A stretch of 64,000 bases of DNA from a virus, in the IMG/VR virus record IMGVR_UViG_3300035494_000060, positions 1 through 64,000 of that record; one strand, given 5' to 3'. The notes under the pieces were generated by a model. That model was not told the DNA's origin, ran no database searches, and saw nothing but the letters and a program-made list of their open reading frames with translations. Position numbers and translations under genes: made by a program. Position 1 is the first letter of the stretch, and each line of letters begins with the position of its first letter. Of this stretch, positions 3,423 through 54,474 are shown one piece after another.

Positions 3423-3435
3423 TGTCCCCTCCATA

Positions 3436-3465: not shown

Positions 3466-3485
3466 ATGGTGTCAAGCGTTGGTTA

Positions 3486-8075: not shown

Positions 8076-9908
8076 TCACCCGAGCAGGCCCTCCAGCGCC
8101 TCGTCAAGGTGAATGGCTGGCAGGGCAATGCTTTTGGACACTAGCCCCGCCTTTTGCAATTGCGCCAGGACATGCGGGCCCCCGAGCGCATTGTAAACAT
8201 AACTTTGTGCAATCACACCCTCCACCGATGCACTTAATTGCAATAGCTCCCCCAGGTTCGTCGGGGTGATGACCGCCTGCGCGCCCCCCGCGTACTGGTT
8301 GAACATGCCTATGAGGAACTCCCCCTCCTTCGTGAGGCCATGGGCCTCCGGCATCAGCCCATGCCCCGAGTCGGGGTCGTCCCAGCAACTGGTGACGGAC
8401 TGGAACACGTCTTCGAAGGGGGTGCCCTTGGCAATGACGCAGCCCGGGTGCCCGATCCCATCCCCCTTGGCGGCCTTCAGCATGCCCATCAGGACGTCCA
8501 GGCCCGCAGCGGTCTCCAGCTCGGGGTGGCCCATGTAGACGGCCCCGGTCAGACCATCGACGGTGATCTTCTGGCCCGCCGGGATGCCGGTCACGCCCGC
8601 GCAGCCGACCACGCAGGTCTTGTCCATGCCCCGGGCCACCACGGCGGCGTGGCAGGTAATCCCACCTGTGCTGGTGAGGATCGCCACGGACTTGACCATC
8701 ATCGGGAAGTCATCCGGGGAGGTTTCGTCCGCAATCAGGATGCCCTGGCCCTGCGCCGCCTCCAGCTGCTGCATGTTGAAACAGGCGATGCCGTGCACGG
8801 CCCCACCTCCCGCCGCCAGGCCGGTGAAGTCGGCCTTCGCGGACCCGGCCACGGTCGATACGCTGAGGCTCGGCACGATGCTCAGGGGGATGCGCTTGAG
8901 GGCGGCCTGTAGCGACAGGCGCCCGGCCTTCCACAGGTCCTGCGCGATGACCACGTGAGCGGTGGCGGTGCGCTTGGCCGTGCGGGTCTGGAGCACGTAG
9001 AGCTTGCCGGATTCGATGGTGAACTCGACGTCCTGGGCATCGTTGAAGTGCTCCTCCAGGGCCACGGCCAAATCAAGCACCTGCTCGTACAGGGCGGTGT
9101 CCAGGGTCTCCAGGTTCTTCGGGGTGACGGCCCCGGACACCACGTCCTCGCCCTGGCCGCACACCACGTACTCCCCCACCATCTTGTTCTCCCCGGTGGC
9201 TGGGTCGCGGGTGAACATGACACCGGAGGCCGACTTCTCGTCCCGGTTGCCGAACACCATCTTCTGGATGACCACGGCGGTGCCCCAGTTGTCCGGGATG
9301 TTGTGCTTGGCCCGGTACACGCGGGCGCGCTCGGAGTTCCAGCTGTCAAACACAGCCCGGATCGCCTGGGATACCTGCGCCAGAATCGAGTTGGGGAACG
9401 GGCCCGCCAACTGTTCGAACAGGTCTCGGTGGTGCTCGTACCGGCCCATGGCGTCCAGGTCTTCGCAGTGGTAGTCCTCCTTGGCGTGGCCGCGCACGGT
9501 GACGCCGAACATTTCGATCAGGCGGCCCCAGCTGTCGTAGGCGGCCTCCTTGCCGATGGCGTTGGCCAAGTGCCCGATGGTCTGCTCGGTGATGCCCACG
9601 TTCAGGATCGTGTCCATCATGCCGGGCATGCTGACCCGCGCGCCGGAGCGTACTGACACGCACGGGTTGGACTGGGTGAACAGCACCCCGTCGCTCTTGT
9701 CCAGGGCTTCTTGCGCCAGGGCTTGGCAGTAGTGGGCCCGGTTGGTCGAGTCCAGCTTCAGGTAGTCGACGCAGCATTGCGTGGGGATGATGATGGCCTC
9801 GGGCACTGGCAGCTTGAGGTCCTGGGACATGACAGCAAGGCCATAGCCCTTCCCGCCCAGGTGCTCCTTGGTCATCAGTTTGTCGGGGATTTCGTTGAGC
9901 AGGTACAT
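8076..9908 (-). CDS. PPDK/PEP-synthase-like dikinase (ATP-grasp plus phosphohistidine swivel domain) lacking the PEP/pyruvate TIM-barrel
   Basis: ORF 8076..9923, start reset to ATG 9908. GGKGYGLAVM nucleotide-binding motif, RTAKRTA, swivel motif GGITCHAAVVARGMDKTCVVG. About 610 aa, versus about 870 aa for PPDK. C-terminal ~150 aa unassigned. Confidence 0.8.
   Translation of the reverse strand: MYLLNEIPDKLMTKEHLGGKGYGLAVMSQDLKLPVPEAIIIPTQCCVDYLKLDSTNRAHYCQALAQEALDKSDGVLFTQSNPCVSVRSGARVSMPGMMDTILNVGITEQTIGHLANAIGKEAAYDSWGRLIEMFGVTVRGHAKEDYHCEDLDAMGRYEHHRDLFEQLAGPFPNSILAQVSQAIRAVFDSWNSERARVYRAKHNIPDNWGTAVVIQKMVFGNRDEKSASGVMFTRDPATGENKMVGEYVVCGQGEDVVSGAVTPKNLETLDTALYEQVLDLAVALEEHFNDAQDVEFTIESGKLYVLQTRTAKRTATAHVVIAQDLWKAGRLSLQAALKRIPLSIVPSLSVSTVAGSAKADFTGLAAGGGAVHGIACFNMQQLEAAQGQGILIADETSPDDFPMMVKSVAILTSTGGITCHAAVVARGMDKTCVVGCAGVTGIPAGQKITVDGLTGAVYMGHPELETAAGLDVLMGMLKAAKGDGIGHPGCVIAKGTPFEDVFQSVTSCWDDPDSGHGLMPEAHGLTKEGEFLIGMFNQYAGGAQAVITPTNLGELLQLSASVEGVIAQSYVYNALGGPHVLAQLQKAGLVSKSIALPAIHLDEALEGLLG
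8229..8242. repeat. 14-bp palindrome copy
   Basis: TGCACTTAATTGCA inside the dikinase gene, read as L-Q-L-S-A. Confidence 0.9.
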
Positions 9909-9944
9909 TGCCGTTCCCTCCATGTAGTGTTCGGCGTAGTGGAT

Positions 9945-17030: not shown

Positions 17031-17044
17031 TGCAGTTAATTGCA
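17031..17044. repeat. 14-bp palindrome copy
   Basis: TGCAGTTAATTGCA, 9 bp upstream of the P8 -35. Confidence 0.9.
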
Positions 17045-22076: not shown

Positions 22077-22090
22077 TGCAGTTAATTGCA
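22077..22090. repeat. 14-bp palindrome copy
   Basis: TGCAGTTAATTGCA, 8 bp upstream of the P11 -35. Contains the TAA stop of 22082..22309. Confidence 0.9.
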
Positions 22091-28232: not shown

Positions 28233-28246
28233 TGCAGTTAATTGCA
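28233..28246. repeat. 14-bp palindrome copy
   Basis: TGCAGTTAATTGCA, 10 bp upstream of the P14 -35. Confidence 0.9.
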
Positions 28247-33554: not shown

Positions 33555-33568
33555 TGCAGTTAATTGCA
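33555..33568. repeat. 14-bp palindrome copy
   Basis: TGCAGTTAATTGCA, 8 bp upstream of the P17 -35. Confidence 0.9.
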
Positions 33569-34871: not shown

Positions 34872-34885
34872 TGCAGTTAATTGCA
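34872..34885. repeat. 14-bp palindrome copy
   Basis: TGCAGTTAATTGCA, 10 bp upstream of the P18 -35. Confidence 0.9.
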
Positions 34886-35656: not shown

Positions 35657-35670
35657 TGCAGTTAATTGCA
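35657..35670. repeat. 14-bp palindrome copy
   Basis: TGCAGTTAATTGCA, 8 bp upstream of the P19 -35. Confidence 0.9.
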
Positions 35671-35714: not shown

Positions 35715-36392
35715 TCAGGCGCGGAGGCGGATGACGTGGAGCAGCTCGGCATACTCACAGGCGGACTCGACCCCACGCAGGCGCGCCAGGGCGTCGGCGG
35801 CGTAGGTGCTGATCAGGTCCTCGGGTCCGCGCATCTGCGAGTGGTGCTGGTTCAGGGCCTCACGCTTGAGGTCCATCTGCTCGCTGATGTCGACGTACAT
35901 CCCGCCACGCCCCACGGTGAACTCCGCGCCCGGGCCCCAGCCGGTGGCCGGGTACTCGTAGGCCAGGACCTTCTCCACGTAGCGGGTGGCGGCACGCGGG
36001 CGGCAGGCGGCCATGGCGGCCCGGTGGGTGACCTCGTGGTCCTGGTGGGCAGAGGGCAGGGGCAGCAGTATCTCGCGGGGCTTGAGGTCCGCGATGGCGC
36101 CCTCGATCTTGCCGATCACCTCCTTGAGCGGGAGGGTGTCGAGCATGGTGTCCTTGTTCACGAAGCCATAGTGCACGCCATAGGCCCCCAGGACCTTGGC
36201 CGCCGCGTCTGCCTCCTCCAGGCGCACATGCCACCGCACGGTGTGGCCGGTGTCGAGGTGGGTGATGTCGCCCAAGGCCATGATCAGCACGTGCACCTCG
36301 GCGCCCTGCTGAGCGCGCTTGGCCATGTAGCCGCCACAGCCCAGCTCGGCGTCGTCAGAGTGGGGGGCAATCACCAGAATACGGTCAGGCAT
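35715..36392 (-). CDS. PIG-L/LmbE-family N-acetylglucosaminyl deacetylase
   Basis: ILVIAPHSDDAELGCGG and SAHQDHEVTH motifs. Confidence 0.8.
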   Translation of the reverse strand: MPDRILVIAPHSDDAELGCGGYMAKRAQQGAEVHVLIMALGDITHLDTGHTVRWHVRLEEADAAAKVLGAYGVHYGFVNKDTMLDTLPLKEVIGKIEGAIADLKPREILLPLPSAHQDHEVTHRAAMAACRPRAATRYVEKVLAYEYPATGWGPGAEFTVGRGGMYVDISEQMDLKREALNQHHSQMRGPEDLISTYAADALARLRGVESACEYAELLHVIRLRA

Positions 36393-38974: not shown

Positions 38975-39799
38975 TTAGTTCAAGAAGTCGAGCGTGGGGA
39001 CGTCAGCGGTGAAGGTGCCTTCCACGTCCGGGCACTCGGCCAGCAGCGCCGCCACGGTCTCCTCGTCCAGGGATTCCAGCAGCTTGTGCATCAGGTGGTC
39101 CATCGACTTGTTGGCCGCCTTGGTCTGTGCAGCTAATTGCAAAAAGGTCTTCTTCTGGCCCGTCTGCATGCGCAGCCACACCGACTCCTTGCCACCGAAG
39201 TCCACGATCATGTAGCCGTGCGGCAGGGTGTCTCCGTGGGTGGTGAAGAGGTAGTTCAGCACCTTGGCCAGGTCATCCATGGTGCGAATCTCTTTGGCCG
39301 CGTCCTTGAAGGCCTGCTTCATGTCCTTGGGCAGGGACTTCTCGGTCGCCTTGATCAGCTTCTTGAACTCGGCCTCGTCGGTGAAACCGAACAGCTCGGC
39401 GGCCACGTCATCGGCGTACTTCTCGCTCAGGGAGTTGTACAGGGCCATGAACTTATCGGCGTTCATCTGGCCGTGAATGATGTTGTGACGGACCACCTGG
39501 AACTTCTCGGCGTCCTCGTCGAACTCGGGGTCGCTGATCACGGTGGCGGGGATGGTGTCGAAGCCCAGCAGCTTGGCGACCTCCAGGCGGTGGTGACCGC
39601 CCACTACGCGGTAGCGCCCCTTCTTGCTGGGGTGGGGCCGCACGAGGATCGGGTCGGTGATCCCCACGCGCTCCACGTTGTCATACAGCATGTTGAACTG
39701 GGCCTCGGACATTTCGTTCGGGTTCAGCTCGTTGTTGTCCAGCAGCTCGACATCAATGTCCAGGCGGTTCAGCTTCTTGGTCTTTTCTACGGCGCTCAT
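38975..39799 (-). CDS. ParB/Srx-fold N-terminal domain protein
   Basis: LNPNEMSEAQFNMLYDNVERVGITDPILVRP...YRVVGGHHRLEVAKLLG. ATGA overlap with the upstream gene. Confidence 0.75.
   Translation of the reverse strand: MSAVEKTKKLNRLDIDVELLDNNELNPNEMSEAQFNMLYDNVERVGITDPILVRPHPSKKGRYRVVGGHHRLEVAKLLGFDTIPATVISDPEFDEDAEKFQVVRHNIIHGQMNADKFMALYNSLSEKYADDVAAELFGFTDEAEFKKLIKATEKSLPKDMKQAFKDAAKEIRTMDDLAKVLNYLFTTHGDTLPHGYMIVDFGGKESVWLRMQTGQKKTFLQLAAQTKAANKSMDHLMHKLLESLDEETVAALLAECPDVEGTFTADVPTLDFLN
39128..39141. repeat. 14-bp palindrome copy
   Basis: TGCAGCTAATTGCA inside the ParB-like gene, read as L-Q-L-A-A. Confidence 0.9.
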
Positions 39800-41310
39800 T
39801 CGGCGTCCCCTTGTGCAATTGGTTGCAATACGCCGACCTGAGGTCCGGCATCCCTGACATTGTGGTGTGCAATTAGCTGCAATCTGAAGGTGTGCCAGTC
39901 GGTGATCCAGACCGAACGGAAGGCCTCGCGCTGGTTGTCCACCAACTTCTGCCCGAACGTGCGGATGTCCGGCTCACCGTCGACCATGCGTTGCAGCAGC
40001 GACAGCAGGGCCTCCGGCTGCGGCTGCAAGTAGGTGGCGGCCCGGCGGACCATTTCCTGCTCCTTGCCCAGGGCCTTCCACTCTTCGAACTCCTCGACCC
40101 ACTGCGCCAGCACCAGCTCCACGACCAGCGGGGTCCAGGTGTCGTTGCGCGATTGCAGCAGGGGCAGGAACTTCTCCCGCTGCCAGAGGACAAACTTCTT
40201 GTAGTGGGTGGCGTAGTCCTCATAGAACGCCCGGATCACTCCGTAGGCCTCGGTCGGGGTCTTGATGTAGAAGGGGTATTCGTCCCCCAGGGTGGCGCGG
40301 GCCCAGTCGCAATCGAGCACGGCCACCGGCAGCCCGAGGATCAGCGGCTCGACCAACGACAGGCTGTAGTCCTCCTCGTTGGAGAGGAACAAGCCCACGT
40401 CGCTCTCCTCGCGCACGATGCGCCAGAACTCCTCGCGCGGGGCCGGGTGGAACTCGATGAAGTCAGGCGGGTTCATGCCCTGACCCAGCCCCTTGGAGGC
40501 CGTGGTCATCATGCAGCGAATCTTGGTCTCTTCCTTGTTGCGCATGACCCAGTGTTTGGTCATCACGTCCCAAATGTCCTCGATGCGGTGGCCCCACACC
40601 ATGCGGCCCGAGAACGAAATGGTGAAGGGCTTCTCCCGCTTGATCACCTTCTCGACCACCGCCTTGGTCTTCGGCTGCACCTCGTCCACCTGGATCGGGG
40701 ACGACTCCACCAACACGGATTGCAGGCGACGGAGGAAGGCGGCACTGAAGTGGTCCCGAGCGATCTTGAGCATGTGGCGCTTCTGCCAGAAGGCGCAGAT
40801 GGCCACCAGGTCGGACTGGTAGTAGCCCAGGAGCGTCTGCTGATCGGAGACCTGCCCCGGGGCGATGGCCACCGCTGATTTGTAGGACATCATCGGCATG
40901 TCCTCCAGCAGCACAATCTTCTTCGCCCACCGCATGCCCTCGGCGCCCGGCTTGCAGCAGTTCATTCTGATCAGGGGGACCAACGCTGACTTGTTGGTGA
41001 CCAGGATGTCCCAGTCCCAATACTCGCCATCAATGGCATAGACCATTTCCAGTTCACGCGGCAGGCGACTGTACTCCCGGTAGCGATCCAGGATGCCTGG
41101 GGCCGGCGTGTACACGAACTGGATGCGCTCCACATGGGGCAGTGACTTCAGCCACTCCATGCACTCCTCGGGGATGTCGTCCGGGATCAGCCAGTAGGCG
41201 TACAGGTCTGGATGCTTGGGGGCTAGGTAGCTCCATATCTTCGCGTACTTGGAGGCTGAGGCGCAGCGGCTTGGAAAGGTCGTATAGATCGGGTCCAACA
41301 GCATTTTCAT
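39796..41310 (-). CDS. putative GT-B-fold glycosyltransferase (504 aa)
   Basis: C-terminal half GLFLSNEEDYSLSLVEPLILGLPVAVL resembles the GT1/GT4 E-x7-E region. Strong AAGGAGGG RBS. Confidence 0.5.
   Translation of the reverse strand: MKMLLDPIYTTFPSRCASASKYAKIWSYLAPKHPDLYAYWLIPDDIPEECMEWLKSLPHVERIQFVYTPAPGILDRYREYSRLPRELEMVYAIDGEYWDWDILVTNKSALVPLIRMNCCKPGAEGMRWAKKIVLLEDMPMMSYKSAVAIAPGQVSDQQTLLGYYQSDLVAICAFWQKRHMLKIARDHFSAAFLRRLQSVLVESSPIQVDEVQPKTKAVVEKVIKREKPFTISFSGRMVWGHRIEDIWDVMTKHWVMRNKEETKIRCMMTTASKGLGQGMNPPDFIEFHPAPREEFWRIVREESDVGLFLSNEEDYSLSLVEPLILGLPVAVLDCDWARATLGDEYPFYIKTPTEAYGVIRAFYEDYATHYKKFVLWQREKFLPLLQSRNDTWTPLVVELVLAQWVEEFEEWKALGKEQEMVRRAATYLQPQPEALLSLLQRMVDGEPDIRTFGQKLVDNQREAFRSVWITDWHTFRLQLIAHHNVRDAGPQVGVLQPIAQGDAE
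39814..39827. repeat. 14-bp palindrome copy
   Basis: TGCAATTGGTTGCA at the glycosyltransferase 3' end, 15 bp upstream of the ParB-like start. Confidence 0.9.
39868..39881. repeat. 14-bp palindrome copy
   Basis: TGCAATTAGCTGCA inside the glycosyltransferase gene, read as L-Q-L-I-A. Confidence 0.9.
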
Positions 41311-41351
41311 GTTGTCATTCCCTCCTTGTCAGTGTTGGTGTGGTGTCGCGC

Positions 41352-41381
41352 ATCTTACAGGTCGACTTCCTGTGCAATCAA
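41352..41381 (-). promoter_or_regulatory. candidate promoter of the glycosyltransferase-ParB-terS-terL operon
   Basis: TTGATT-N18-TAAGAT in the 204-bp non-coding gap. The -35 lies inside a near-palindrome copy. It differs from the P1-P25 family. Confidence 0.35.
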
Positions 41382-41386
41382 TTACA
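41373..41386. repeat. 14-bp palindrome, one-mismatch copy
   Basis: TGCAATCAATTACA overlapping the candidate -35. Confidence 0.55.
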
Positions 41387-41460
41387 AGTCTCTTCCCTAT
41401 GGTAATGACGTTCTTCTCCTCTCTCTTGTGTGTCTCTGTGACATGGGTTCTTTCCCCCCA

Positions 41461-41496
41461 CAAATGGAAAGCCCCCGGTGGTGTTCCGAGGGCTTC
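41461..41496 (-). terminator. candidate intrinsic terminator after the WbqC-like gene
   Basis: Minus strand AAGCCCTCGG-AACACCA-CCGGGGGCTT followed by a weak T tract, TCCATTTG. Confidence 0.4.
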
Positions 41497-41514
41497 TTGT
41501 GGTTCCGGGGGTAG

Positions 41515-42297
41515 TTAAGGTTCGTGGGTCAGGGGCCCCCATTCATAGACGGTCTCGGGTGTGACTTCCTCAGTGGATTCCCCCCAGGTGGGTGTGAGTA
41601 GTTCCCGCGTCTTCTTGGCCCCGATGGTCATCAGGGGATCAAGGATGGAGGTCATGCCATTGAGGTTCAGGGTTCCCGCCACGGTCTCGTAGCTGTCGGG
41701 CATCTTGTAGTTCTGGATGTGGAGTTCGATGCCCTTCTCCTTGAAGGCGGGCCGCCGGATGTAGTTGGTCATGGCCGCGCCGCCTCCCAGGTAGTCGGTG
41801 CCTCCCACGGCTTCCACCATCTTCGCTACCCACTCACTGGCATCCCATTCGGGTTGGCGGTCCCCGAGCAGAGCCCAGGCGTCCACGACTACCGCTTCGA
41901 TCCCGCACAGCTTGTTGGCCCAGTCCATGGTCGCGCCGGCGAAGACGGACAGGATCGGGGCCTCGCGTGCAATTAGCTGCAATCGTTCCAGCAGCTCCTC
42001 GCCGTGGTCCTTGTAGCCGGGGCACTTCCCGTAGTTGGCCTTCAGGGTCCCCTCAAACTTCTTGAGCCAGCGCATGGGCTGATCCAGCTCGATCTGGTTG
42101 AGCGGCCTGAAGTCCCGGTTCTTCAGCGGGACACTGAGCTTGGCGGGCCCCTGCTTGCTGAAGATGTCAGCGCGGGAGTGGTGGCCGAACTTGCTGTACT
42201 GGGCTTCCCCCATCAGCACGATGGCATCCACCAGGCGGAAGCGGTGCATCATGTAACAAGCCGGGAATAATAAAGTCTGGTTGCAGGTGACTTTCAA
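41515..42297 (-). CDS. WbqC-like family protein
   Basis: ORF-track 260 aa with TTG start. N-terminal FPACYMMHRFRLVDAIVLMGEAQYSKFGHHSRADI...LSVPLKN...W..KFEGTLKANYGKCPGY matches the remembered WbqC pattern. Confidence 0.55.
   Translation of the reverse strand: MKVTCNQTLLFPACYMMHRFRLVDAIVLMGEAQYSKFGHHSRADIFSKQGPAKLSVPLKNRDFRPLNQIELDQPMRWLKKFEGTLKANYGKCPGYKDHGEELLERLQLIAREAPILSVFAGATMDWANKLCGIEAVVVDAWALLGDRQPEWDASEWVAKMVEAVGGTDYLGGGAAMTNYIRRPAFKEKGIELHIQNYKMPDSYETVAGTLNLNGMTSILDPLMTIGAKKTRELLTPTWGESTEEVTPETVYEWGPLTHEP
41968..41981. repeat. 14-bp palindrome copy
   Basis: TGCAATTAGCTGCA inside the WbqC-like gene, read as L-Q-L-I-A. Confidence 0.9.
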
Positions 42298-42806
42298 TCT
42301 TCAATCTCCAGATGGGCCCACTTCCTGCCGGCCTTGATGTTGTAGGTGTAGCCCAAACTTATCCCGTATTGGGCGGCTAGAGCTTTAGGGTTCCCGCCGG
42401 CCAGCAGCGCCTTTTTCAGGGCCCTGGCTTGTTCTTCGGTCAGTTTGGCGTGTGGGTTGGCCTCACCAGGGTTCGAGTGATTCCTGCCCTTCTGGTGCAT
42501 GTCACGCATGTTGTCCAGCTGAGACCCAGCGAACAGGTGATCAGGTCGGGCACACGCGGGGTTGTCACAGGTATGGCAGACATGCAGCCCCTCGGGGATC
42601 GGCCCTTTGTGGGCCTCAAACATCAGACGATGCACGTAGATCATCTGGCCCGCGTCCGGGCTGTATATCATCCCGTAGCCTGCCGAAGACTTCCCATAGG
42701 GCCACTCCCAACAGCCCTCAGCGGGTTGTGGGAGGCGCCCCATCACGCGCTCTAGTGAGAGCTTATCCATAGGGCAGCAGGAGGGTCTGGTTGCAGGTGA
42801 CTTTCA
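42275..42806 (-). mobile_element. free-standing HNH homing-endonuclease insertion bounded by a 22-bp direct repeat
   Basis: GTCTGGTTGCAGGTGACTTTCA occurs at 42275..42296 and at 42785..42806. The repeat encodes the first 8 codons (MKVTCNQT) of the WbqC-like gene. GC looks locally lower by eye. Confidence 0.7.
42294..42770 (-). CDS. HNH homing endonuclease (HNH_3-type) with a C-terminal HTH
   Basis: CWEWPYGKSSAGYGMIY...YVHRLMFEAHKGPIPEGLHVCHTCDNPACARPDHLFAGSQLDNMRDM. Confidence 0.85.
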   Translation of the reverse strand: MDKLSLERVMGRLPQPAEGCWEWPYGKSSAGYGMIYSPDAGQMIYVHRLMFEAHKGPIPEGLHVCHTCDNPACARPDHLFAGSQLDNMRDMHQKGRNHSNPGEANPHAKLTEEQARALKKALLAGGNPKALAAQYGISLGYTYNIKAGRKWAHLEIED

Positions 42807-42807
42807 T
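42763..42807 (-). pseudogene. 14-codon remnant of the original WbqC-like 5' end (MKVTCNQTLLLPYG)
   Basis: Its ATG 42807 overlaps the methyltransferase TGA (ATGA). Its TAA stop lies 8 nt inside the HNH ORF. Confidence 0.55.
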
Positions 42808-43406
42808 AGCGGCTTACTCGGAATCAGCAGGAGGCGGTGCTTGTCCCCCGGCACCTGGGCGGCGATGCACTCGGACAGGGGGCAGCCAAAGGCTTCTTCG
42901 ATCTCCTCGTCCGTGTAGGAGCGGAACATGCCGTCATACTCGGGGGCGGGGTAGTAGGCCAGGGCGATGTAGCAGCCGGCCAGCTGGCGCAGTTCAGCGG
43001 CAAACCCCTTCAGGCCCCCCTCTGGCAGGGTCGACACCACGCCCACCGCTACAGCGACGTCATAGACGTTCTGCTCGTCGCGGATAAGGTCGCCCATCGT
43101 GCGGCACTCGATGCGGGCCTCCGGGTATTTGGACCGGCCTTCGTCTGCGATCCAGCGGATGGCGTCGATGCCGTGGTAGTCCGCCAGCGGCCTCGGGAAG
43201 TGGATGCTCAGGTCACCATAGCCACAGCCCACATCCAGAACATCGCTAGGGTACTCGCCCATCCGACCGATGATCATCAGTGCAATCAGTTGCAATCGCC
43301 GGGCGGGTAGGTCGGTGTTGGGCGACAGCAGGCCTTTCTGCTCACCCTTGTGGGCCTCCGCCTGCTGGTACATGGCGGCGTACTTTGGATCAATGGGTTG
43401 GGTCAT
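42804..43406 (-). CDS. class I SAM-dependent methyltransferase (small-molecule type)
   Basis: ORF 42804..43433, start reset to ATG 43406 (ATGA overlap). Motif I VLDVGCGYGDL. No DNA-methyltransferase DPPY or PC motifs seen. Confidence 0.75.
   Translation of the reverse strand: MTQPIDPKYAAMYQQAEAHKGEQKGLLSPNTDLPARRLQLIALMIIGRMGEYPSDVLDVGCGYGDLSIHFPRPLADYHGIDAIRWIADEGRSKYPEARIECRTMGDLIRDEQNVYDVAVAVGVVSTLPEGGLKGFAAELRQLAGCYIALAYYPAPEYDGMFRSYTDEEIEEAFGCPLSECIAAQVPGDKHRLLLIPSKPL
43281..43294. repeat. 14-bp palindrome copy
   Basis: TGCAATCAGTTGCA inside the methyltransferase gene, read as L-Q-L-I-A. Confidence 0.9.
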
Positions 43407-44446
43407 GGGTAGCTCCAGAAGGTGTTGGGCCATTGGTCATCGGGGTGCAGGCGCCCGAAGTTGCGGTGGGCAAGGCACATGCCCCACATGGCCCGGATGG
43501 TGCCGGCGAATCGCTCGTCATCGCCGTCCGTGTGGACTCCATCAGCAAAGTAGCTGGGGAAGTGTTTCTCGCTTGGGGTGTCCCAGTATTGGATGGCCTT
43601 GGCGATCAGGGGCTTCACCTCGGCCAGGGTGATCTTCGGCTCCATGGCCTGTAGTTCGTCAGAGCCGACCGGCTGGAACAGGCGAATCAGGGCTTGGCCG
43701 GTGTAGTTCCCGTCTGCTGACAGGTCCTTGAGGTTGTCCCGGTAGACCGCCAGGGTCCGCAGGGCGTCCTCCTTGCCCAGTTCGGTGGCCAGGGTGGTGA
43801 GTTCCTGGCACATGCGTGCCGCGTTCACCTTGCCCGCGTACAGGGCCTCCCAGGCGGCCACCGCCGTATCCATGTCGCCCGAGCGCACCGCCTCGGCCAT
43901 TTCGAGGTATTTCTCGTCCTCGGTGCGGCAGGCAAACACCTTGTGGTGGTTCAGGGCATTGCAGCGGCGGAAGGCCCGGATGTATTCGACCCCGCCCTCG
44001 TCGGCGTACCAGTTCGGGGTGCGGCAGAGGCGCATGACTTGCGCGCAGAGGTTGACCAGGGTGATGTTGGCGTAGTCCCGGCGCCATGCCGAGGTGCGCT
44101 CCATGGTGTACAGGGAAATGTTGTCCTCGCCGGCCATGATCATCACACGGCGTATCAGGCGAAACTTCTGGTCGGGGATGCGCCAGAGGTAGACCGCGTA
44201 TTTCACGGCCTCGTATTCCCAGCGTAGGCGCTGGCTCTTGATCAGCCCGGACATGGCCCGCCCGGGGGTTACCTTTCTGACTTTATCGCTCACTACGTGG
44301 CCCCTCATGTGTTTGCATGGTGTCTTCCGCTTCTTGAAGGCGGGGCAGGTGCAGGTCTTGGCCGCGATGTCGACCGTGTAGAAGACCCCAGGCTCGCTGA
44401 AGCTCTCCACTTGGATGGCGTTGCCGATCAGGTCCAACTGCTGCAT
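43403..44446 (-). CDS. SWIM zinc-finger protein (347 aa)
   Basis: ORF 43403..44551, start reset to ATG 44446, downstream of P20. CTCPAFKKRKTPCKH fits the CxC-Xn-CxH pattern. Confidence 0.6.
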   Translation of the reverse strand: MQQLDLIGNAIQVESFSEPGVFYTVDIAAKTCTCPAFKKRKTPCKHMRGHVVSDKVRKVTPGRAMSGLIKSQRLRWEYEAVKYAVYLWRIPDQKFRLIRRVMIMAGEDNISLYTMERTSAWRRDYANITLVNLCAQVMRLCRTPNWYADEGGVEYIRAFRRCNALNHHKVFACRTEDEKYLEMAEAVRSGDMDTAVAAWEALYAGKVNAARMCQELTTLATELGKEDALRTLAVYRDNLKDLSADGNYTGQALIRLFQPVGSDELQAMEPKITLAEVKPLIAKAIQYWDTPSEKHFPSYFADGVHTDGDDERFAGTIRAMWGMCLAHRNFGRLHPDDQWPNTFWSYP

Positions 44447-44474
44447 ATCCGCGCCCTCTGCGTCTTGACCCCTT

Positions 44475-44503
44475 ATTCTCCCACCCCCACCTATGTTTGT
44501 CAA
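44475..44503 (-). promoter_or_regulatory. conserved sigma70-like promoter P20
   Basis: TTGACA-N17-GAGAAT. A terminator lies just upstream. Confidence 0.7.
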
Positions 44504-44513
44504 ACGGTGGCCC

Positions 44514-44543
44514 ATAAAAAAGCCCCCTGGGGGAAGGGGGCTA
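44514..44543 (-). terminator. intrinsic terminator
   Basis: Minus strand AGCCCCCT-TCCC-CAGGGGGCT followed by TTTTTTA. Confidence 0.7.
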
Positions 44544-44562
44544 GGGTCCAACGAGGAGGGGG

Positions 44563-45429
44563 TTACATGGTCACTTCGAGGTCCACGCCAGGGAAGCAGG
44601 TCTCGAAGATTTCCAGCACCTTTTCGACACCGGCGGCTTTCATCAGTTCCGCCAGGGAGGGCTGCTTGGTCTTGTTGCTGCCGCCGGTCGCGTAGGACTG
44701 GCAGATGTGCTCCAGGGCCACCGCGTCGTACTCGGTGCCGTAGTCTTCCTTCGCCTTGTCGACGGTGGCTCGGATGACTTCCTTCTGGTCGGTGTGAACC
44801 TTGAAGGTCAGGGTGGTGATCGGGGAGCTGGGGGCCTCCGGCATTTCTGGAGCCGTGCCAGGAGTCTTCAGCGACTTGATGTACTCGATCAGCTCCAGGA
44901 CGGTCATGGTCTGAGCCTTCTCGACCAGGGCGTCCACGTTGTCGTTGTTCAGGATCGGGGACAGTTCCTTGAGCTTGGTCCAGCCCAGGCCCTGCACCTT
45001 CTCCCAGGCCACGCCCGACTCCACCAGATCGTTGTAAATCTGGATCAAGTACATCGCCTTGCGGTATTGCAGGCCGTACTCGGCATTGATGAACGCCTTG
45101 AAGCTATCGTGGCCGTGGCCTTCCCAGTAGCTCTTGGTCTGGATCAGTGCCAGGACGCCACCCAACTTGAAGTAGGTCTCGTCGACCGACTCCAGCAGGT
45201 CCTTGGCCGAGCTGATCGCCGCGTCCTCAGCCATGTTCTCGATTTCAGAGACAATGTTGACGATGACGTCCGTCTCTGCCGTGGCCTTGGCTTTCGCGGT
45301 GGCCTTCTTGGCCGCAGCCGGCTTCTTCTTCACGGCAGTGGTGGTGCCCGCTTCGGACTCAACCGCTGCTGCTTCGGTGGTGCCAACTGCTTCTTCTGCT
45401 GCTTCGGGTTTCTTCTTGGAAATTGCCAT
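44563..45429 (-). CDS. hypothetical protein with MAISKKK N-terminus and a Lys/Ala-rich tract
   Basis: ORF-track 288 aa. Lies downstream of P21. No family recognised. Confidence 0.65.
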   Translation of the reverse strand: MAISKKKPEAAEEAVGTTEAAAVESEAGTTTAVKKKPAAAKKATAKAKATAETDVIVNIVSEIENMAEDAAISSAKDLLESVDETYFKLGGVLALIQTKSYWEGHGHDSFKAFINAEYGLQYRKAMYLIQIYNDLVESGVAWEKVQGLGWTKLKELSPILNNDNVDALVEKAQTMTVLELIEYIKSLKTPGTAPEMPEAPSSPITTLTFKVHTDQKEVIRATVDKAKEDYGTEYDAVALEHICQSYATGGSNKTKQPSLAELMKAAGVEKVLEIFETCFPGVDLEVTM

Positions 45430-45511: not shown

Positions 45512-45525
45512 TGCAATTAGTTGCA
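45512..45525. repeat. 14-bp palindrome copy
   Basis: TGCAATTAGTTGCA, 9 bp upstream of the P21 -35. Contains the TAA stop of the RuvC-like gene. Confidence 0.9.
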
Positions 45526-46068
45526 GATTTTTTCCTTATGGAGAGCGTGCACCGCTTCCATATTCACCTGAGGCAAACCCAAGTTGGCCCCGTCATACGC
45601 CCGAGCGAAGAATGCCAGACCAACCGCGTCTGCTTCGTTATCGGTCGCGCAGGATACCCCAAAGCGCTGAAAAACGCTGAGCAGCATCATGTCCTTTTTC
45701 GCATTGCCCTTGCCGGAGACGAACTTCTTCAGGCTCGTCGGCGGCACTTCCAGGTAGTCCAGGCCGCACTGCATAAGGCGTAGACGCAGGATCGTGCCCA
45801 GTTCCACCATCGTCGCCTGGTTGAAGTTGGAGGCGAAACTGTAGCCCTCGATCACTGCTCGTGTGACCTTGTGGCGTGCAATCAGTTCCTCGATCTGATC
45901 TGCCAGCCACAGGGCCCGGGGGATTCCGGTCTTGCCCTTGGGGGTCTTGATTTCCCCCGACAGCTCCAGGCGGTCGCCTACGGTGACGGCATAGCCGCAC
46001 TTGGTTGAGGGGTCGACGGCCAGGGTGACCACCTCCCCTTTTGGCTTCTGTTTGATCGTGATGGCCAC
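45517..46068 (-). CDS. RuvC-like Holliday-junction resolvase
   Basis: GTG 46068 overlaps the upstream TAG by 1 nt, giving the N-terminus (M)AITIKQKPKG. LAVDPSTKCGYAV, VIEGYSF, DNEADAVGLAFFA. Confidence 0.75.
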   Translation of the reverse strand: MAITIKQKPKGEVVTLAVDPSTKCGYAVTVGDRLELSGEIKTPKGKTGIPRALWLADQIEELIARHKVTRAVIEGYSFASNFNQATMVELGTILRLRLMQCGLDYLEVPPTSLKKFVSGKGNAKKDMMLLSVFQRFGVSCATDNEADAVGLAFFARAYDGANLGLPQVNMEAVHALHKEKICN

Positions 46069-46991
46069 TAGGCGGGCTCCAGGTTCTTGAGCTTGATGAC
46101 TGTGCCCGGGTCGTACTTGCCGCTGAAGCAAGCCTTCACCGAAGAGCACCCCTGAGCCCGCTTGCAGAGGACGTTGGGGCAAATGCCGCTGGGTATGGTG
46201 CCCGTCTCGCGGAAGAGCTTCAAGGCCCGCGCCTTGTTCATGTAGACCCCGGTGGCGGTGTCATCCCGAACCACCGAGAACTCCTTGAAGGGGCTGAAGG
46301 CGGTGTCCGGGTGCTTGAACTTCATGCCGTCCGTCTTCACCCCGAAGCCCTTCATCATGTACAGCACCCGGGCGCGCTCGGTGTTGATGTGGCCGCGCAT
46401 GGGGTGGTCGCTGTCCTCGATCAGGCGGAGGTACAGGTTCGTCCGCAGCCGGTGCTCGGGCTTCGGGGCCATCAGGGTCTTGAAGTCATCCGCCTTGATC
46501 GACTTCAGCTCCACCACTTCCAGAGGCCCGGTATTGAGGTCGACCAACAGGTCTATCCCGCCAGAGGCCCCGGAGGTCTTGCTGATGAAGCGCACCTCCT
46601 CATAGCGGAAGGCGTCCTCCGCGCCGCAGCTGGAACACCAGCCCGGGCGCTTCTGGAACGTGTGCAATTGATTGCAGCGAACGCAGGTCCAATCCCCCAC
46701 GGCAATCGGAAGCGCCCACTTGTTGCAGAGCAGCTCAGCCAGTGAGTTGCCCATGTCGAAGGTGTAGCGCAGGGCCGTGCCTACGGCCTTGGGTTTGCGG
46801 GTGTCCGGGAACAGGTCCGCCAGGGCGTGCTCCCGGGGGCAGTAGGGCGTCTCCTCGTTGGTTATGTCTGAGGCATGGATGCGGGTCGCAGGGCGGGGCG
46901 GCTCGTAGGCCGCCATGTTGGCGTGTAGGGCGTGGATCAGCTCCGTCCCCACGGGCACGGCATTGAGCTTGACCTTCTGCACGAACTTCAC
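46068..46991 (-). CDS. PD-(D/E)XK (Cas4/RecB-like) exonuclease with Cys clusters
   Basis: GIDLLVD...LEVVELKSIK core. N-terminal YCPRE, C-terminal CPNVLCKRAQGC, and an inserted CVRC...CSSCG ribbon. Confidence 0.7.
   Translation of the reverse strand: MKFVQKVKLNAVPVGTELIHALHANMAAYEPPRPATRIHASDITNEETPYCPREHALADLFPDTRKPKAVGTALRYTFDMGNSLAELLCNKWALPIAVGDWTCVRCNQLHTFQKRPGWCSSCGAEDAFRYEEVRFISKTSGASGGIDLLVDLNTGPLEVVELKSIKADDFKTLMAPKPEHRLRTNLYLRLIEDSDHPMRGHINTERARVLYMMKGFGVKTDGMKFKHPDTAFSPFKEFSVVRDDTATGVYMNKARALKLFRETGTIPSGICPNVLCKRAQGCSSVKACFSGKYDPGTVIKLKNLEPA
46663..46676. repeat. 14-bp palindrome copy
   Basis: TGCAATTGATTGCA (perfect arms) inside the nuclease gene, read as C-N-Q-L-H. Confidence 0.9.
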
Positions 46992-47389
46992 TGGGCACCC
47001 CCTGTCAGGCGCAGGAAGTCAGCCTCGGGGATGGCGACCCAGGCGCCTTCCCGGCGGACCACCCCGGATTTGTCCGTGAACAGCAGCTGGAGTGCCGGGA
47101 CCTGGTTGAGAGAATTGGCCTCGTGGCTGATCTTCAGCAGCCACTCGTGCTTGACGCTCAGGCTGTCCTTGATGGTCTGCTTGTGCTCCAGGCGGAAGGC
47201 GAGGGCGGGGGACAGGAACACCCCATCCCCCTTGTCCCCATCGGTGGCGCCGGAGTTGGCGGTGGCCTTGGCGCCGATCCTGGCCATGGTACGGCTCTCG
47301 GTGTACTTGCCCAGGCAGTCGCCAGCCCCGAGCTTGCCCTTCCTGGCCACGGTCTTGCCCCTGAGGGTGGTGGGCTTGAGTGCCGACAT
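46988..47389 (-). CDS. hypothetical protein (possible small PD-(D/E)XK-type nuclease)
   Basis: ORF-track 133 aa. GATDGDKGD...RLEHKQT is weakly nuclease-like. Confidence 0.45.
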   Translation of the reverse strand: MSALKPTTLRGKTVARKGKLGAGDCLGKYTESRTMARIGAKATANSGATDGDKGDGVFLSPALAFRLEHKQTIKDSLSVKHEWLLKISHEANSLNQVPALQLLFTDKSGVVRREGAWVAIPEADFLRLTGGAQ

Positions 47390-48489
47390 CAGTCATCCCC
47401 CTCCTGGGCATCCACCATGGTCGCGCCCTCCAGTAGCCGGCGGCAGACGTCCGCCCTCACCTTATCCAGCAGACCCGGGGTGCCCATCACGTGCTCCTTG
47501 ATCTGCTTGATGGTGGGGAACTCCTCACCGTAGAACTGGAACTTGGTGCCCACCTTATCGAGCAGCCCGAGGCCTTTCAGCTTGTGCGTCAGCGGGTTCC
47601 AGTCGTCGCACTCGCCCACGGCCAGCCCCTTGTGCGGGATGACCACCATTTTGTACTCGAAGTTGGTCTGGAGGATCGGCACCTTCCACTTGCGGATGAT
47701 GCAGGTGGTGACCTTCATGGCTGGCAGGACCGGATTGACCTCCTTGACCACTTCGTTCTTGCCGTAGAGGCGGATGGTCATCGAGCTGGCGAACATCAGC
47801 GGTTTGCCCCCGGGCATGGTCTCCGGGTCACCGTGCATCACCCCGATCTTGAGGCGAATCTGGTTGACCGCGATGAAGGTGGGGAACCGGCCCTGCTTCT
47901 TCGCTTTCATCTGCCCCAGGACGATCTTGCGGGCCAGCTTGCCCACCACCAGGGAGGCCCCCCCGACGATGGCGCCCTCGGCGGACTTCTCGGTCTCGGC
48001 GTGGGTGACCAGGGCGGCGATGCTGTCGAAGATGATCAGCCCGATGTTGTCCGCCTCCATGAGCATGTCAGCGATGTCCACGGCCTGCTCGGCAAAGTCA
48101 GGTTGGATGATGTGCAGCTTGTTGAGGTTGACGCCCATCTTCTTGGCCCAGGCCGGGTCGAAGGCATTCTCCAGGTCGACGAACACGCACTCCTCGTCGG
48201 GCCAGAGGCGCTGGTGGTTGGCAATGGTCTTCAGAATCAGGTTGGTCTTGCCCGAGGACTCCGGGCCATAGACGATGCTGATCTTTCCTCGGGGGAATCC
48301 ACCCCCGGTGGCGATGTCGACATCGAGCAACCCGGTCGGGATTCGCTCAACGACCACGTTCTCGGCCTCGCTGGCCAGCAGAGAGACGCCATCCCCCAGC
48401 TTGTCCTTGACCCCTTTGAGCAGGCTGCTGACGCTGCTTTTGGAGAGCGGCTTGGCCTCTCCGTTCTTACCCTTCACGCTTACTGCCAT
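47389..48489 (-). CDS. RecA-family recombinase
   Basis: ORF 47389..48681, start reset to ATG 48489 (MAVSVKGKNG). LDVDIATGGGFPRGKISIVYGPESSGKT and GLIIFDSIAAL. Confidence 0.85.
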   Translation of the reverse strand: MAVSVKGKNGEAKPLSKSSVSSLLKGVKDKLGDGVSLLASEAENVVVERIPTGLLDVDIATGGGFPRGKISIVYGPESSGKTNLILKTIANHQRLWPDEECVFVDLENAFDPAWAKKMGVNLNKLHIIQPDFAEQAVDIADMLMEADNIGLIIFDSIAALVTHAETEKSAEGAIVGGASLVVGKLARKIVLGQMKAKKQGRFPTFIAVNQIRLKIGVMHGDPETMPGGKPLMFASSMTIRLYGKNEVVKEVNPVLPAMKVTTCIIRKWKVPILQTNFEYKMVVIPHKGLAVGECDDWNPLTHKLKGLGLLDKVGTKFQFYGEEFPTIKQIKEHVMGTPGLLDKVRADVCRRLLEGATMVDAQEGDD

Positions 48490-48509
48490 GGTGCCCCCAA
48501 ATGCCCCAG

Positions 48510-48938
48510 TCAGGCCTGATTCAACACTTCTTCCATCTTGCGGTTCACCCAGTCCTGACCGAAGGCTAGCGCCGTGTCTATGCCCTCCAGAGGGACCGGG
48601 ATGTTGATGCTCACCTGCACCTTGAAGCTGTTGTAGTCCCCCAGGTTGCGGGTGGCCCCAGCACTGAAGCCCACGTTGCACAGTGGCTGGTCGGAGGAAA
48701 CGGAGTACAGGTGCTCCTCGGTGAAGGTTTCAGCCCCCGACTTCTTCTCGTGGGTGGTGATGGTCGCCTTGGCGTTCTTGGACTTCAGGTCCCCGCCCGC
48801 GCCTTGCTCGTCCCAGGGCATGGATTCGGCAGGGGCTGCGCCCTTCTTCTTCGCCACAGCGCCGCTGGGCTTCTTCTCTTGGGTGTCGTCAGGCGGGGTG
48901 GCGCCGGCTTTGGTCTTGAGCTTAATGGCCACTGTCAT
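48510..48938 (-). CDS. hypothetical protein with MTVAIKLK N-terminus
   Basis: ORF 48510..49007, start reset to ATG 48938. Confidence 0.55.
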   Translation of the reverse strand: MTVAIKLKTKAGATPPDDTQEKKPSGAVAKKKGAAPAESMPWDEQGAGGDLKSKNAKATITTHEKKSGAETFTEEHLYSVSSDQPLCNVGFSAGATRNLGDYNSFKVQVSINIPVPLEGIDTALAFGQDWVNRKMEEVLNQA

Positions 48939-53214: not shown

Positions 53215-54474
53215 TCACAGGAATTGCAGCTCCTCGATCTTGTTCTCGTCGTACTCGTCGAAGTTCATGGTGAGGAAGTCCCAGTTCATCAGGAACTCCC
53301 CGACTTCGCCGTTCCGGCCCTTGAGGATCGAGCACTTGCGGCGGATGGCCGTCTCGATGCCCTCGTGCTCCAGCAGGCCCAGCACCACGGTGGACACCTG
53401 GCCGATGACGTCCGAATAGCCGATGTCCTCCAGGCCGGGGTCACCCTCGCCCTTCTTCTTCGACTTCTTCGCGGCTTCCCGGTTGAACTGCCAGGAGGTG
53501 GCGACCGGGATGTTCAGCAGACCGGCAAGGTCGGACTTGAAGGCCTCGGCGTTCTCGGCCACGCGGTCGTACTTGTTGATCTTGCTGTTCGGGTGGCGCA
53601 CCAGGTAGGCACCGTCGATCACGATGAACTGCGGCTCCAGCTGTTGAGCCAGCATCATGATGTCGTCCACCGTGGCGGTCAGGTTCCCGTCGACCACGTA
53701 CAGGCTCGACTCGGCAGCCTCCAGGGCCATCATGCTCTCGGTGAACTGCTTGAGGCCCTTGCTGGTAAGCTCGGCGTTCTTCAGGTTGGTCAGCGACTTG
53801 TGGGTGTGCATAGCGGCCAGACGTTGAAGGATCGGCAACGGCTTCATTTCCATCGACACGAACAGGCCGGTCTTGTTCTGGTAGAACGCTTGCAGGGCCA
53901 TCCTCAGCATCATGAAGGTCTTACCCAGTGCCGGGCGCCCGACTACGGATATGACATCGCCGCCGAGCATGCCCCCCATCATCTGGTCCAGGGAGCCCCA
54001 GCCGGTCAGGATGCCGTAGTCATCGCCCTGAGTCAGCTTCTCCTTGTAGGCCTGGAGCAGGGGCGCCGCCGATTCCTTGAAGTCCACGATGTTGAGACCG
54101 CTGGCGCTGGTGGTGATCCGCGACACCGTGCGCTTCAGCTCCTCGAACGCGGCCAGAGGGTCCAGGCCGGACTTGTTCATCAGGGGCTTGACCTCGGCAA
54201 TCGAGGCGGCCAGTTCCCGGTGAATCCAGCGCTTGCGCAACTCCTCGATGTAGTAGCCCGAGACCTCGGTGGCCTTGGGCAGGCTCTCCCCGTGCCAGCC
54301 CTCGACCATGGCGCGTGACGGCAGGCCCCCGAACTTCCTCAGGTGCTGGATAGCCCGCTCGTACAGCTCACGCTCTAGTGGATCAAAATGCTCGGGGTTC
54401 AGTGTGGTCCCCAACAGTCCCTTCACGCTTCCGCTATCAATAACGGATGCAATTAACTGCAATCCAATGCTCAC
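53215..54474 (-). CDS. dnaB: replicative DnaB-family helicase
   Basis: GTG start. Walker A VVGRPALGKT, Walker B FIVIDGAYL, plus a DnaB-like N-terminal domain. Confidence 0.9.
   Translation of the reverse strand: MSIGLQLIASVIDSGSVKGLLGTTLNPEHFDPLERELYERAIQHLRKFGGLPSRAMVEGWHGESLPKATEVSGYYIEELRKRWIHRELAASIAEVKPLMNKSGLDPLAAFEELKRTVSRITTSASGLNIVDFKESAAPLLQAYKEKLTQGDDYGILTGWGSLDQMMGGMLGGDVISVVGRPALGKTFMMLRMALQAFYQNKTGLFVSMEMKPLPILQRLAAMHTHKSLTNLKNAELTSKGLKQFTESMMALEAAESSLYVVDGNLTATVDDIMMLAQQLEPQFIVIDGAYLVRHPNSKINKYDRVAENAEAFKSDLAGLLNIPVATSWQFNREAAKKSKKKGEGDPGLEDIGYSDVIGQVSTVVLGLLEHEGIETAIRRKCSILKGRNGEVGEFLMNWDFLTMNFDEYDENKIEELQFL
54448..54461. repeat. 14-bp palindrome copy
   Basis: TGCAATTAACTGCA in dnaB codons 5-9, read as L-Q-L-I-A. 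Confidence 0.9.

Follow-up and report, generated by a model that had tools for sequence, protein, structure and literature searches.

A free-standing HNH endonuclease gene beside a duplicated, partly re-coded start of a phage WbqC-like gene

Homing endonucleases that lack an intron can colonise densely packed, overlapping phage genes and leave them functional, in ways that are understood only in part, and a locus in the IMG/VR virus record IMGVR_UViG_3300035494_000060 raises this question in an experimentally tractable form. The window analysed here covers positions 1 to 64,000 of that record (64,000 nucleotides, nt), all of its genes lie on the minus strand, and all position numbers given below are those of the window. 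Within it, an open reading frame (ORF) for a homing endonuclease of the HNH_3 family stands between a methyltransferase gene and a WbqC-like gene, and the 5' end of the WbqC-like gene occurs on both sides of the nuclease. In the reading that I regard as probable, an I-HmuI-like HNH_3 gene was inserted 36-37 nt into the WbqC-like gene, together with a replacement, re-coded 5' end, as a free-standing homing cassette. A stretch of 550 base pairs (bp) suffices to read off where the insertion lies, the native start that was orphaned, the start that was rebuilt and a candidate for the immunised target.

The duplicated gene start and the nuclease between its copies

Scanning the window for exact matches located a 22-mer exactly twice (Table 1), with no further copy in the window at up to 3 mismatches and 0 copies expected in 100 shuffles. 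The spacing of the two copies is 510 bp, or 170 codons, so that they share one reading frame, and together they bracket an intact HNH_3 ORF of 158 amino acids (aa). At the upstream copy, the methyltransferase gene ends in ...CCG CTA TGA, and its stop TGA (42806-42804) overlaps an ATG at 42807-42805 in an ATGA junction; the frame that opens there reads ATG AAA GTC ACC TGC AAC CAG ACC CTC CTG CTG CCC TAT GGA TAA, and its stop (TAA, 42765-42763) takes up nt 6-8 of the HNH ORF, i.e. it ends 5 nt after the HNH ATG, which is itself embedded at 42770 in ...CCC T ATG GAT AAG. At the downstream copy, the HNH ORF closes with ...CTG GAG ATT GAA GAT TGA, and the last T of its GAT together with the TG of its stop forms the TTG (42297-42295) with which the functional WbqC-like gene begins in a TTGA overlap, going on as TTG AAA GTC ACC TGC AAC CAG ACT TTA TTA TTC CCG GCT TGT TAC ATG ATG.... 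A first-pass annotation made from the letters of the sequence had described the 22-bp repeat of the WbqC-like gene start, the original ATG overlapping the methyltransferase stop, the 14 codons that stop 8 nt inside the HNH ORF, the TTG overlapping the HNH stop and the AT-rich codons 8-12 of the functional copy; the exact-match scan confirmed the repeat, and the remaining features all read as described.

Past the 22-mer, the upstream remnant keeps the frame with L-L-L-P, against L-L-F-P in the functional copy. A fixed-frame match to L-L-[L/F]-P is so rare by chance (5.5e-5 of window positions) that the duplicated target evidently extends to about 37 nt, comprising the TGA and codons 1-12, over which the copies are identical at 22/22 nt and then at 7/15 nt.

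Direct repeats may also arise from mis-assembly, by chance, or as the target-site duplication of a transposon, and nothing but the presence of such a repeat beside the element speaks for these origins here, which I consider highly improbable. Mis-assembly is unlikely because a separately recorded 6.4-kb public contig (L002), 99.97% identical and with 2 single-nucleotide polymorphisms elsewhere, carries the HNH gene and the repeats in the same structure; chance is opposed by the expectation of 0 copies and by the meaningful frames in which both copies lie. As for a transposon, no terminal inverted repeats were seen around the HNH unit, whose only ORF is the nuclease, with no transposase according to Pfam, and a transposon with terminal inverted repeats was consequently ruled out. 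Insertion sequences carry a transposase, terminal inverted repeats and a short target-site duplication, whereas the duplication at this locus spans 22-37 nt, far longer than typical target-site duplications, and is partly re-coded.

The HNH gene is also free-standing with respect to introns and inteins, because a search of 41300-44700 against Rfam (E<=1) returned no intron RNA, the gaps between the remnant and the HNH ATG and between the HNH stop and the repeat are 1 nt and 0 nt, and the HNH frame differs from the WbqC frame. A group I intron, which had been considered as a candidate, was ruled out by the same Rfam search.

The nuclease ORF itself is intact. Its match to Pfam HNH_3 scored 55.5 bits against a cut-off of 24.8, with an additional match to a His-Me zinc-loop family that, at 26.3 bits, fell short of the gathering cut-off of 27. 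No invariant catalytic or zinc residue is missing, and 71 homologues share H47, R48, C65, H66, C68, D69, N70, C73, H78 and N87. A large database of 5.8 billion proteins contained 985 relatives, of which the best non-self matches were 40-48% identical, so that the donor of the gene cannot be named. Homologues of equal length begin at the matching position (MDQRLIDRF... against MDKLSLERV... in the window), which identifies the ATG at 42770 as the true HNH start and the public call P0003, starting at M34, as too short. The AlphaFold (AF2) model had a predicted local distance difference test (pLDDT) score of 94 and consists of a nuclease domain at the N-terminus, followed by three helices at the C-terminus (residues 112-146). 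I-HmuI was its best fold match in the PDB (prob 0.99, covered over 142 columns), followed by I-PpoI, and many helix-turn-helix domains were also among the fold matches; the protein is thus predicted to carry an attached, sequence-reading DNA-binding domain at its C-terminus. A sequence search of the PDB gave a sole, spurious match to a tetratricopeptide repeat (TPR) and was discarded. The predicted fold resembles I-HmuI of Bacillus phage SPO1 (PDB 1u3e) as a small monomer with an N-terminal HNH nuclease and a C-terminal helix-turn-helix module, while the two proteins share only 18% identity and a global TM-score of 0.37, and I-HmuI is intron-encoded and nicks one strand.

In composition, the HNH gene is mildly foreign, yet not AT-rich: its GC content at third codon positions (GC3) is 0.71 against 0.80-0.87 in its neighbours, and its codon score is the 4th lowest of 42 genes. 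The foreign DNA amounts to little more than the bare HNH ORF, with neither a Shine-Dalgarno (SD) sequence nor a promoter of its own. The idea of a further HNH copy in the 64-kb window was dropped, as only this one gene of its kind was found there.

Table 1. Features of the interrupted operon and their positions in the 64,000-nt window.
Feature	Position	Strand	Basis and remarks
Upstream 22-bp repeat copy	42785-42806	-	Coding strand TGAAAGTCACCTGCAACCAGAC; methyltransferase stop and native WbqC codons 1-8 (codon 8 in part)
Downstream 22-bp repeat copy	42275-42296	-	Holds HNH stop TGA (42296-42294) and functional WbqC start (TTG 42297-42295)
HNH_3 homing-endonuclease ORF, free-standing, 158 aa	42294-42770	-	Pfam HNH_3 E=4.3e-15
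Orphaned native WbqC 5' end, 14-codon ORF MKVTCNQTLLLPYG, then stop	42763-42807	-	Homology to WbqC through codon 12 (CCC, 42774-42772)
Re-coded patch, WbqC codons 8-14, ACT TTA TTA TTC CCG GCT TGT, 21 nt	42256-42276	-	Codon usage; presumed immunised endonuclease target
WbqC-like gene, 260 aa from TTG, insertion target and host	41515-42297	-	Pfam WbqC E=6.5e-28
SD-like GGAG, 8 nt upstream of WbqC TTG	42306-42309	-	Encoded in the non-conserved HNH tail LEIED, beyond conserved W151/H153
S-adenosylmethionine (SAM)-dependent methyltransferase gene, 200 aa	42804-43406	-	Pfam Methyltransf_25/23/12; 200 aa also in L002; GGAG before ATG
SWIM zinc-finger protein gene	43403-44446	-	Pfam SWIM E=3.9e-7; ATG at 44446 after GAGGG; stop overlaps methyltransferase ATG (ATGA)
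Promoter-like site TTGACA, 17 nt, GAGAAT	44475-44503	-	Consensus match only; heads the SWIM-methyltransferase-(HNH)-WbqC operon
Terminator-like hairpin just upstream of the promoter-like site	44542-44521	-	Consensus scan

The junction in relatives and the re-coded patch

Three syntenic relatives were recovered, only by the search of the 5.8 billion proteins and by a shorter degenerate motif, and all of them are distant. The HNH gene is absent from this locus in all three, which makes its presence sporadic. In L001 (from Logan), where WbqC is 48% and the neighbouring 504-aa protein 73% identical, the junction is uninterrupted and reads ...agc gt ATGA tc...; in L007 (ENA, WbqC 44% identical), the methyltransferase stop and the WbqC start overlap by 11 nt within the order SWIM-methyltransferase-WbqC; and L018 (IMG/VR, WbqC 33% identical) again has an ATGA junction, with the order SWIM-methyltransferase-WbqC-p504...ParB. 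The corresponding WbqC N-termini read MIYTANQSLFFPCIYML in L001, ..RYTANQPLFFPLLYMM in L007 and ..MYTANQPLMLGGQIYMW in L018. The ATGA junction of the remnant matches those of L001 and L018, and its codons are native-typical, the common ones of the genome. Judging from these junctions, the ancestral state is an overlapping methyltransferase/WbqC junction, presumably translationally coupled, which is kept in the upstream repeat copy. The first-pass annotation had anticipated HNH-less relatives with such an uninterrupted junction, and at the level of architecture the three genomes bore it out; their divergence, at 33-48% identity in WbqC, is too great for a nucleotide-level match between the remnant and an empty site.

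Other searches for relatives were less productive: blastn of 3.3 kb against 50,697 phage records, scans of IMG/VR with back-translated WbqC and methyltransferase, a profile of the neighbouring 504-aa protein run against JGI metagenomes and IMG/VR, and a 44-nt degenerate WbqC motif run against metagenome, viral and genome collections all returned nothing. Ten genome-contig matches of the shorter motif, mostly from Phenylobacterium, were rejected as unrelated proteins with no tblastn match. A second occurrence of the HNH cassette was not found in the phage, viral, metagenome, genome or protein collections searched.

The two copies part ways abruptly after the 22-mer. At codons 8-12 the remnant uses ACC CTC CTG CTG CCC where the functional copy uses ACT TTA TTA TTC CCG, and the altered codon usage extends to codon 14 (Table 1), with native usage again from codon 15 onwards. 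TTA accounts for 0.5% of leucine codons (4/799), ACT for 2.9% of threonine, GCT for 6.4% of alanine and TGT for 15% of cysteine codons, and TTATTA occurs nowhere else in the 64 kb on either strand. For codon rarity, the patch ranks 6th among 10,702 seven-codon windows from 38 genes, which upholds the anomaly that had been claimed for this tract; the windows more extreme than the patch represent three other loci, the two most extreme of which are explained by an unrelated DNA motif (described below), as is one further locus just below the patch in rank. L001 uses common codons at the patch positions, which makes the patch a peculiarity of the genome that carries the HNH gene. An explanation of the patch as a general AT-rich 5'-end effect was ruled out, since codons 2-7 are not re-coded and the codons of L001 are common there, and one as an instance of the motif TGCA-N6-TGCA was ruled out, since no TGCA lies inside it.

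The nature and the position of the changes are informative. None of the 22 nt of the repeat but 8 of the 15 nt that follow differ between the copies (5 transitions and 3 transversions), and these eight differences keep 4/5 residues, the fifth being a conservative replacement. Eight random changes achieve this in 0.05% of trials, so that the downstream copy has evidently been under coding constraint. The patch also spans the boundary between codons 12 and 13, which is the end of remnant homology and the insertion point. Most likely, the patch makes its own genome immune to cleavage by the nuclease. Because the ancestral codons were the preferred ones, a synonymous escape would have to go to rarer codons, with CTG to TTA as the maximum two-base change.

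The first-pass annotation had instead read the tract as a co-conversion tract brought in with the endonuclease in a clean, datable homing event. In its full form, this explanation holds that the rare codons are a neutral co-conversion tract from a diverged, AT-richer donor, acquired in recent classical homing, and I consider it unlikely. The tract adjoins the element and its codon usage looks foreign, the GC3 of the HNH gene is below that of its neighbours, and the functional copy agrees with relatives at residue 11 (F11) where the remnant does not (L11), so that the tract could be from another lineage. However, a diverged donor should also differ at ~7 synonymous sites inside the repeat, and it is precisely the 22 nt beside the HNH gene that are identical; the HNH gene is far less AT-rich than the tract, and codon usage is native downstream of codon 14. 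A lineage test of the replacement copy had 37 nt to draw on, with relatives at 33-48% aa identity, and found the patch atypical in codons and the 22 nt identical to native sequence. A locally selected immunity patch fits the confined differences and the GC3 of the HNH gene better than a generally diverged donor flank.

The homing event proposed in that annotation survives in part, and its suggestion that the tract would also abolish the cleavage site is plausible. An intact I-HmuI-like HNH ORF does interrupt the methyltransferase-ATGA-WbqC junction, whereas classical two-sided homing alone makes no duplication and leaves it unexplained unless the duplication was already in the cassette. By analogy with the mobile ORFs of fungal mitochondria, the duplicated 5' end is better seen as a part of the cassette that serves as a replacement gene start. 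The attribute "datable" had to be given up, as neither a rate or clock nor a close HNH-less sister genome stands behind a date.

Another explanation dispenses with homing at this site: the HNH gene may be a passenger, decaying or domesticated, that entered by a one-off illegitimate insertion, while the patch was selected for some other reason, such as a shorter direct repeat as protection against deletion or the tuning of translation from a weak TTG. Both junctions could be microhomology joints (TGA of the HNH and methyltransferase stops at one, CCCT/ATG at the other), and the lack of such repeats at other HNH_3 loci and of a second cassette would suit a passenger. The HNH ORF, however, is full-length with all invariant residues, and a shortening of the repeat leaves the two patch codons beyond the duplicated segment (GCT TGT) unexplained. 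An effect on start accessibility should hit codons 2-7, which are unchanged, and according to RNA folding the re-coding adds an AAAGUC/GACUUU stem and removes no structure. A passenger, with either of these reasons for its patch, is thus quite improbable in my estimate.

Several observations nevertheless weigh against a homing cassette with an immunised target. Two of the patch codons, the GCT and TGT beyond the remnant, are only moderately rare. Residue 11 is F in the functional copy, as in L001 and L007, and L in the remnant, and because of this agreement either the remnant, whose lineage may have had L there, is not simply the pristine ancestor or the functional tract is from another lineage or allele. 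Three other HNH_3 homologue loci that were checked had no flanking repeats, and the duplicated-end architecture is therefore not a habit of the family. RNA folds at the HNH start and the WbqC start are unremarkable, being no better than shuffled sequence (z = +0.35 and -0.65). The phage, viral, metagenome, genome and protein searches yielded no close HNH-less sister genome, and for this reason the empty-site sequence, the extent of co-conversion and the direction of change from remnant to functional copy are inferred. Cleavage of WbqC, rather than of some other site, is likewise presumed.

The DNA motif that accounts for other rare-codon windows is a 14-bp quasi-palindrome, TGCARYTRANTGCA (commonest form TGCAATTAACTGCA), with 30 sites in the window and 39 strand-matches against 0.04 expected. 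Sites include 17031-17044, 22077-22090, 28233-28246, 33555-33568, 34872-34885, 35657-35670 and 45512-45525, and ~14 of the sites are followed after 5-10 nt by a conserved promoter-like sequence, cTTGACgaaca...GAGAAT, which gives the motif the look of an operator or an UP-like element of the promoters of this phage. Its intragenic copies force rare codons (TTA, CAA, GCA), those at 43281, 41968 and 39868 encoding L-Q-L-I-A. The motif is also found in L001 and L007 and is absent from four unrelated HNH-homologue loci.

Expression of the nuclease and of the rebuilt gene

The operon runs from the promoter through the SWIM gene, the methyltransferase gene and the leader and HNH ORFs to WbqC, with ATGA overlaps at both the SWIM/methyltransferase and the methyltransferase/leader junctions, and expression at the interrupted locus probably proceeds through successive translational couplings. 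The HNH ATG lacks an SD sequence, as had been noted in the first pass: no GGAG, GAGG or AGGA is present in the 24 nt upstream, which read ..cagaccCTCCTgctgccct and contain CCTCC, while AAGGAG or GGAGG precedes many other genes of the window, at -7 to -12. A consensus scan called no promoter close to the HNH gene. Because there is no SD sequence, the 14-codon leader is coupled to the methyltransferase stop, and the leader stop follows the HNH ATG by 5 nt, termination-reinitiation is favoured, and the nuclease is most likely translated in this way, at a low level. As read from the sequence alone, the anatomy of HNH expression, with no SD sequence, an overlapping leader and no nearby promoter, fits a subordination of the nuclease to its host genes. 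Among the free-standing endonuclease genes of phage T4, 6/12 have no translation initiation region and five overlap an upstream ORF, and it has been suggested that coupling, or scanning within ~7 codons, serves to hold down the amount of nuclease (PMC2988022).

The rebuilt WbqC start appears to restore a complete protein. Position 1 of the Pfam WbqC profile aligns to residue 7 of the 260-aa protein, and the first 15 residues of its N-terminus, MKVTCNQTLLFPACYMM, align with L001, L007 and L018, which together indicate that these residues are a real part of WbqC. Upstream of M16 the TTG is the sole available start, and the public call P0001, which begins at M16, is probably too short on this evidence. 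Given the SD-like GGAG in the HNH tail, WbqC translation may not depend solely on coupling to a poorly translated nuclease. For annotation, the locus is a warning: public calls shorten both HNH (125 instead of 158 aa) and WbqC (245 instead of 260 aa) because neither gene, with its SD-less ATG and its TTG respectively, has a canonical ATG-plus-SD start.

Just past the WbqC stop (window ~41461-41496), a GC-rich hairpin, AAGCCCTCGG...CCGGGGGCTT followed by TTCCATTTG, looks like the terminator of the operon, although the consensus scan did not call it. The order SWIM, methyltransferase, WbqC-like protein, 504-aa protein of no known family and (...) ParB_N-domain protein is kept in four distant phage lineages, i.e. 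in the window (38975-44446), L001, L007 and L018. Near this block lie a PIG-L deacetylase-like gene (35715-36392) and a PPDK_N/phosphoenolpyruvate (PEP)-utilising "kinase" gene (8076-9923), and together with them the block may form a DNA- or sugar-modification module.

Known mobile genes and a possible route of homing

The principle is not new, as the same logic is found in the mobile ORFs (mORFs) of fungal mitochondria, from which it is mainly known, and partly in the mob and seg genes of T4. Fungal mORFs come with a substitute for the terminus of the gene, and the native terminus stays behind as a dead duplicate, with the copies differing mostly at synonymous sites; in the cases described, Allomyces macrogynus atp6 and Glomus atp6, atp9, cox2 and nad3, it is the C-terminus that is replaced (PMC3630166). 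Like these elements, the nuclease ORF of the window lies inside a protein-coding gene with no intron, and a replacement gene end maintains the integrity of that gene. Mobile ORFs of this kind are recognised by a further copy of the displaced end through which the frame is restored, and the window has such a copy, of full length, downstream of the remnant. Unlike them, the element replaces the 5' end instead of the 3' end, leaving the native start upstream; its enzyme is an HNH nuclease and not of the LAGLIDADG or GIY-YIG type, and its host is a phage and not an organelle. Furthermore, the duplication is very short in comparison, at ~37 nt with 22 nt still identical, and the orphaned piece, in contrast to the silent duplicate of an mORF, is placed so that it could serve as the leader ORF of the HNH gene.

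With mobA-E and segA-G of T4 (PMC2988022), the element shares a position wedged between or within conserved genes, with no intron, often no ribosome-binding site and an overlap with an upstream ORF, as well as the HNH family in the case of mob. T4 genomes that carry these genes are protected through sequence differences at the target, as the phage of the window would be by its patch. A duplicated, re-coded target 5' end sets the window apart, none being described for the T4 genes in PMC2988022. The identity of the window enzyme to any characterised enzyme is low. Known T4-type cases sit between genes or split a gene in two, as in Aeh1 nrdA. In T4, mobA and the 50-nt bypass cassette of gene 60 reportedly form a unit in which the nuclease travels with adjoining sequence that disrupts its own target while the gene stays functional; gene 60 keeps its function by ribosomal bypassing, and the WbqC-like gene of the window by a duplicated start and synonymous re-coding.

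How such a cassette would work can be outlined. It would measure 510 bp, from 42771 to 42262, and comprise the bare HNH ORF plus a replacement junction and WbqC codons 1-12. Upon insertion, the native codons 1-12 would be orphaned and survive as the 14-codon ORF still coupled to the methyltransferase stop, and WbqC would be rebuilt to full length from the TTG that overlaps the HNH stop, helped by the GGAG in the HNH 3' tail. The remnant would then be the "exon 1" of an element that, being unable to splice, brings its own new exon 1. A rebuilt WbqC would recreate the target across the insertion point, and a patch centred there is what self-immunity predicts; as a side effect, the patch would leave only 22 of the 37 nt as a direct repeat. 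When phages with and without the cassette infect one cell, the nuclease would cut or nick the HNH-less allele in the region of codons 8-14, and repair would take the cassette genome as template. Homology would be provided on the left by the methyltransferase gene with the remnant and on the right by the part of WbqC that follows the patch, so that the whole cassette would be copied. Deletion across the 22-bp repeat would be predicted to give methyltransferase-ATGAAAGTC...CAGAC-TTTATTATTC.

The duplicated 5' end was likely first gained by one-sided or microhomology-mediated illegitimate repair of a double-strand break, and both joints would permit a microhomology of 3-4 nt, through the TGA common to the HNH and methyltransferase stops and through CCCT/ATG. 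One proposal for how new sites are reached, intron acquisition in T4 included, is illegitimate, one-sided repair of double-strand breaks at microhomologies (PMC2988022). The cleavage specificity of the enzyme, the immunity role of the patch, reinitiation and the origin of the duplicated 5' end are all inferred from the arrangement of the locus.

Some smaller repeats lie at or near the joints. The HNH 3' tail (window 42298-42312) reads ATTGAAG ATTGAAAG, a near-tandem 7/8-mer that runs into the downstream repeat copy, and its counterpart at the native junction reads TATGAAAG; microhomology or slippage at the right-hand joint may have left it as a footprint. The 9-mer GCCCTATGG occurs in the window only at the remnant/HNH joint (42767-42775; L-P-Y-G / ATG) and 73 nt into the HNH gene (42694-42702; W-P-Y-G), and such a pair fits chance, given that ~2.4 exact repeats of at least 9 nt are expected per 681-nt region. 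The 10-mer CCTCCTGCTG is present only twice on the coding strand of the 64 kb, 50 nt apart, at 42825-42834 in the methyltransferase C-terminus (..HRLLLIP) and at 42775-42784 in the remnant (..TLLLP). The similarity between these two places spans 15/19 nt and is not common to L001, and the pair may be due to chance or may reflect local conversion or slippage as the source of L11 in the remnant.

Elsewhere in the window, the phage encodes a RuvC-like resolvase (45517-46182), a UvsX-like recombinase (47389-48681), a family-A DNA polymerase (1053-3467) and a DnaB-like helicase (53215-54474), and these recombination and replication genes correspond to the setting of recombination-dependent replication in which T4 homing works.

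Beyond this single locus, I would propose tentatively, and with slightly more doubt than conviction, that phage HNH nucleases may move as "gene-restoring cassettes", in which the ORF is joined to a private, re-coded target start that provides built-in immunity, and the orphaned start is co-opted as a leader. If this is true, intron-less endonucleases could enter essential, translationally coupled genes at internal positions and leave them unsplit, and the cassette would be the 5'-end mirror image of the mORF elements of fungal mitochondria.

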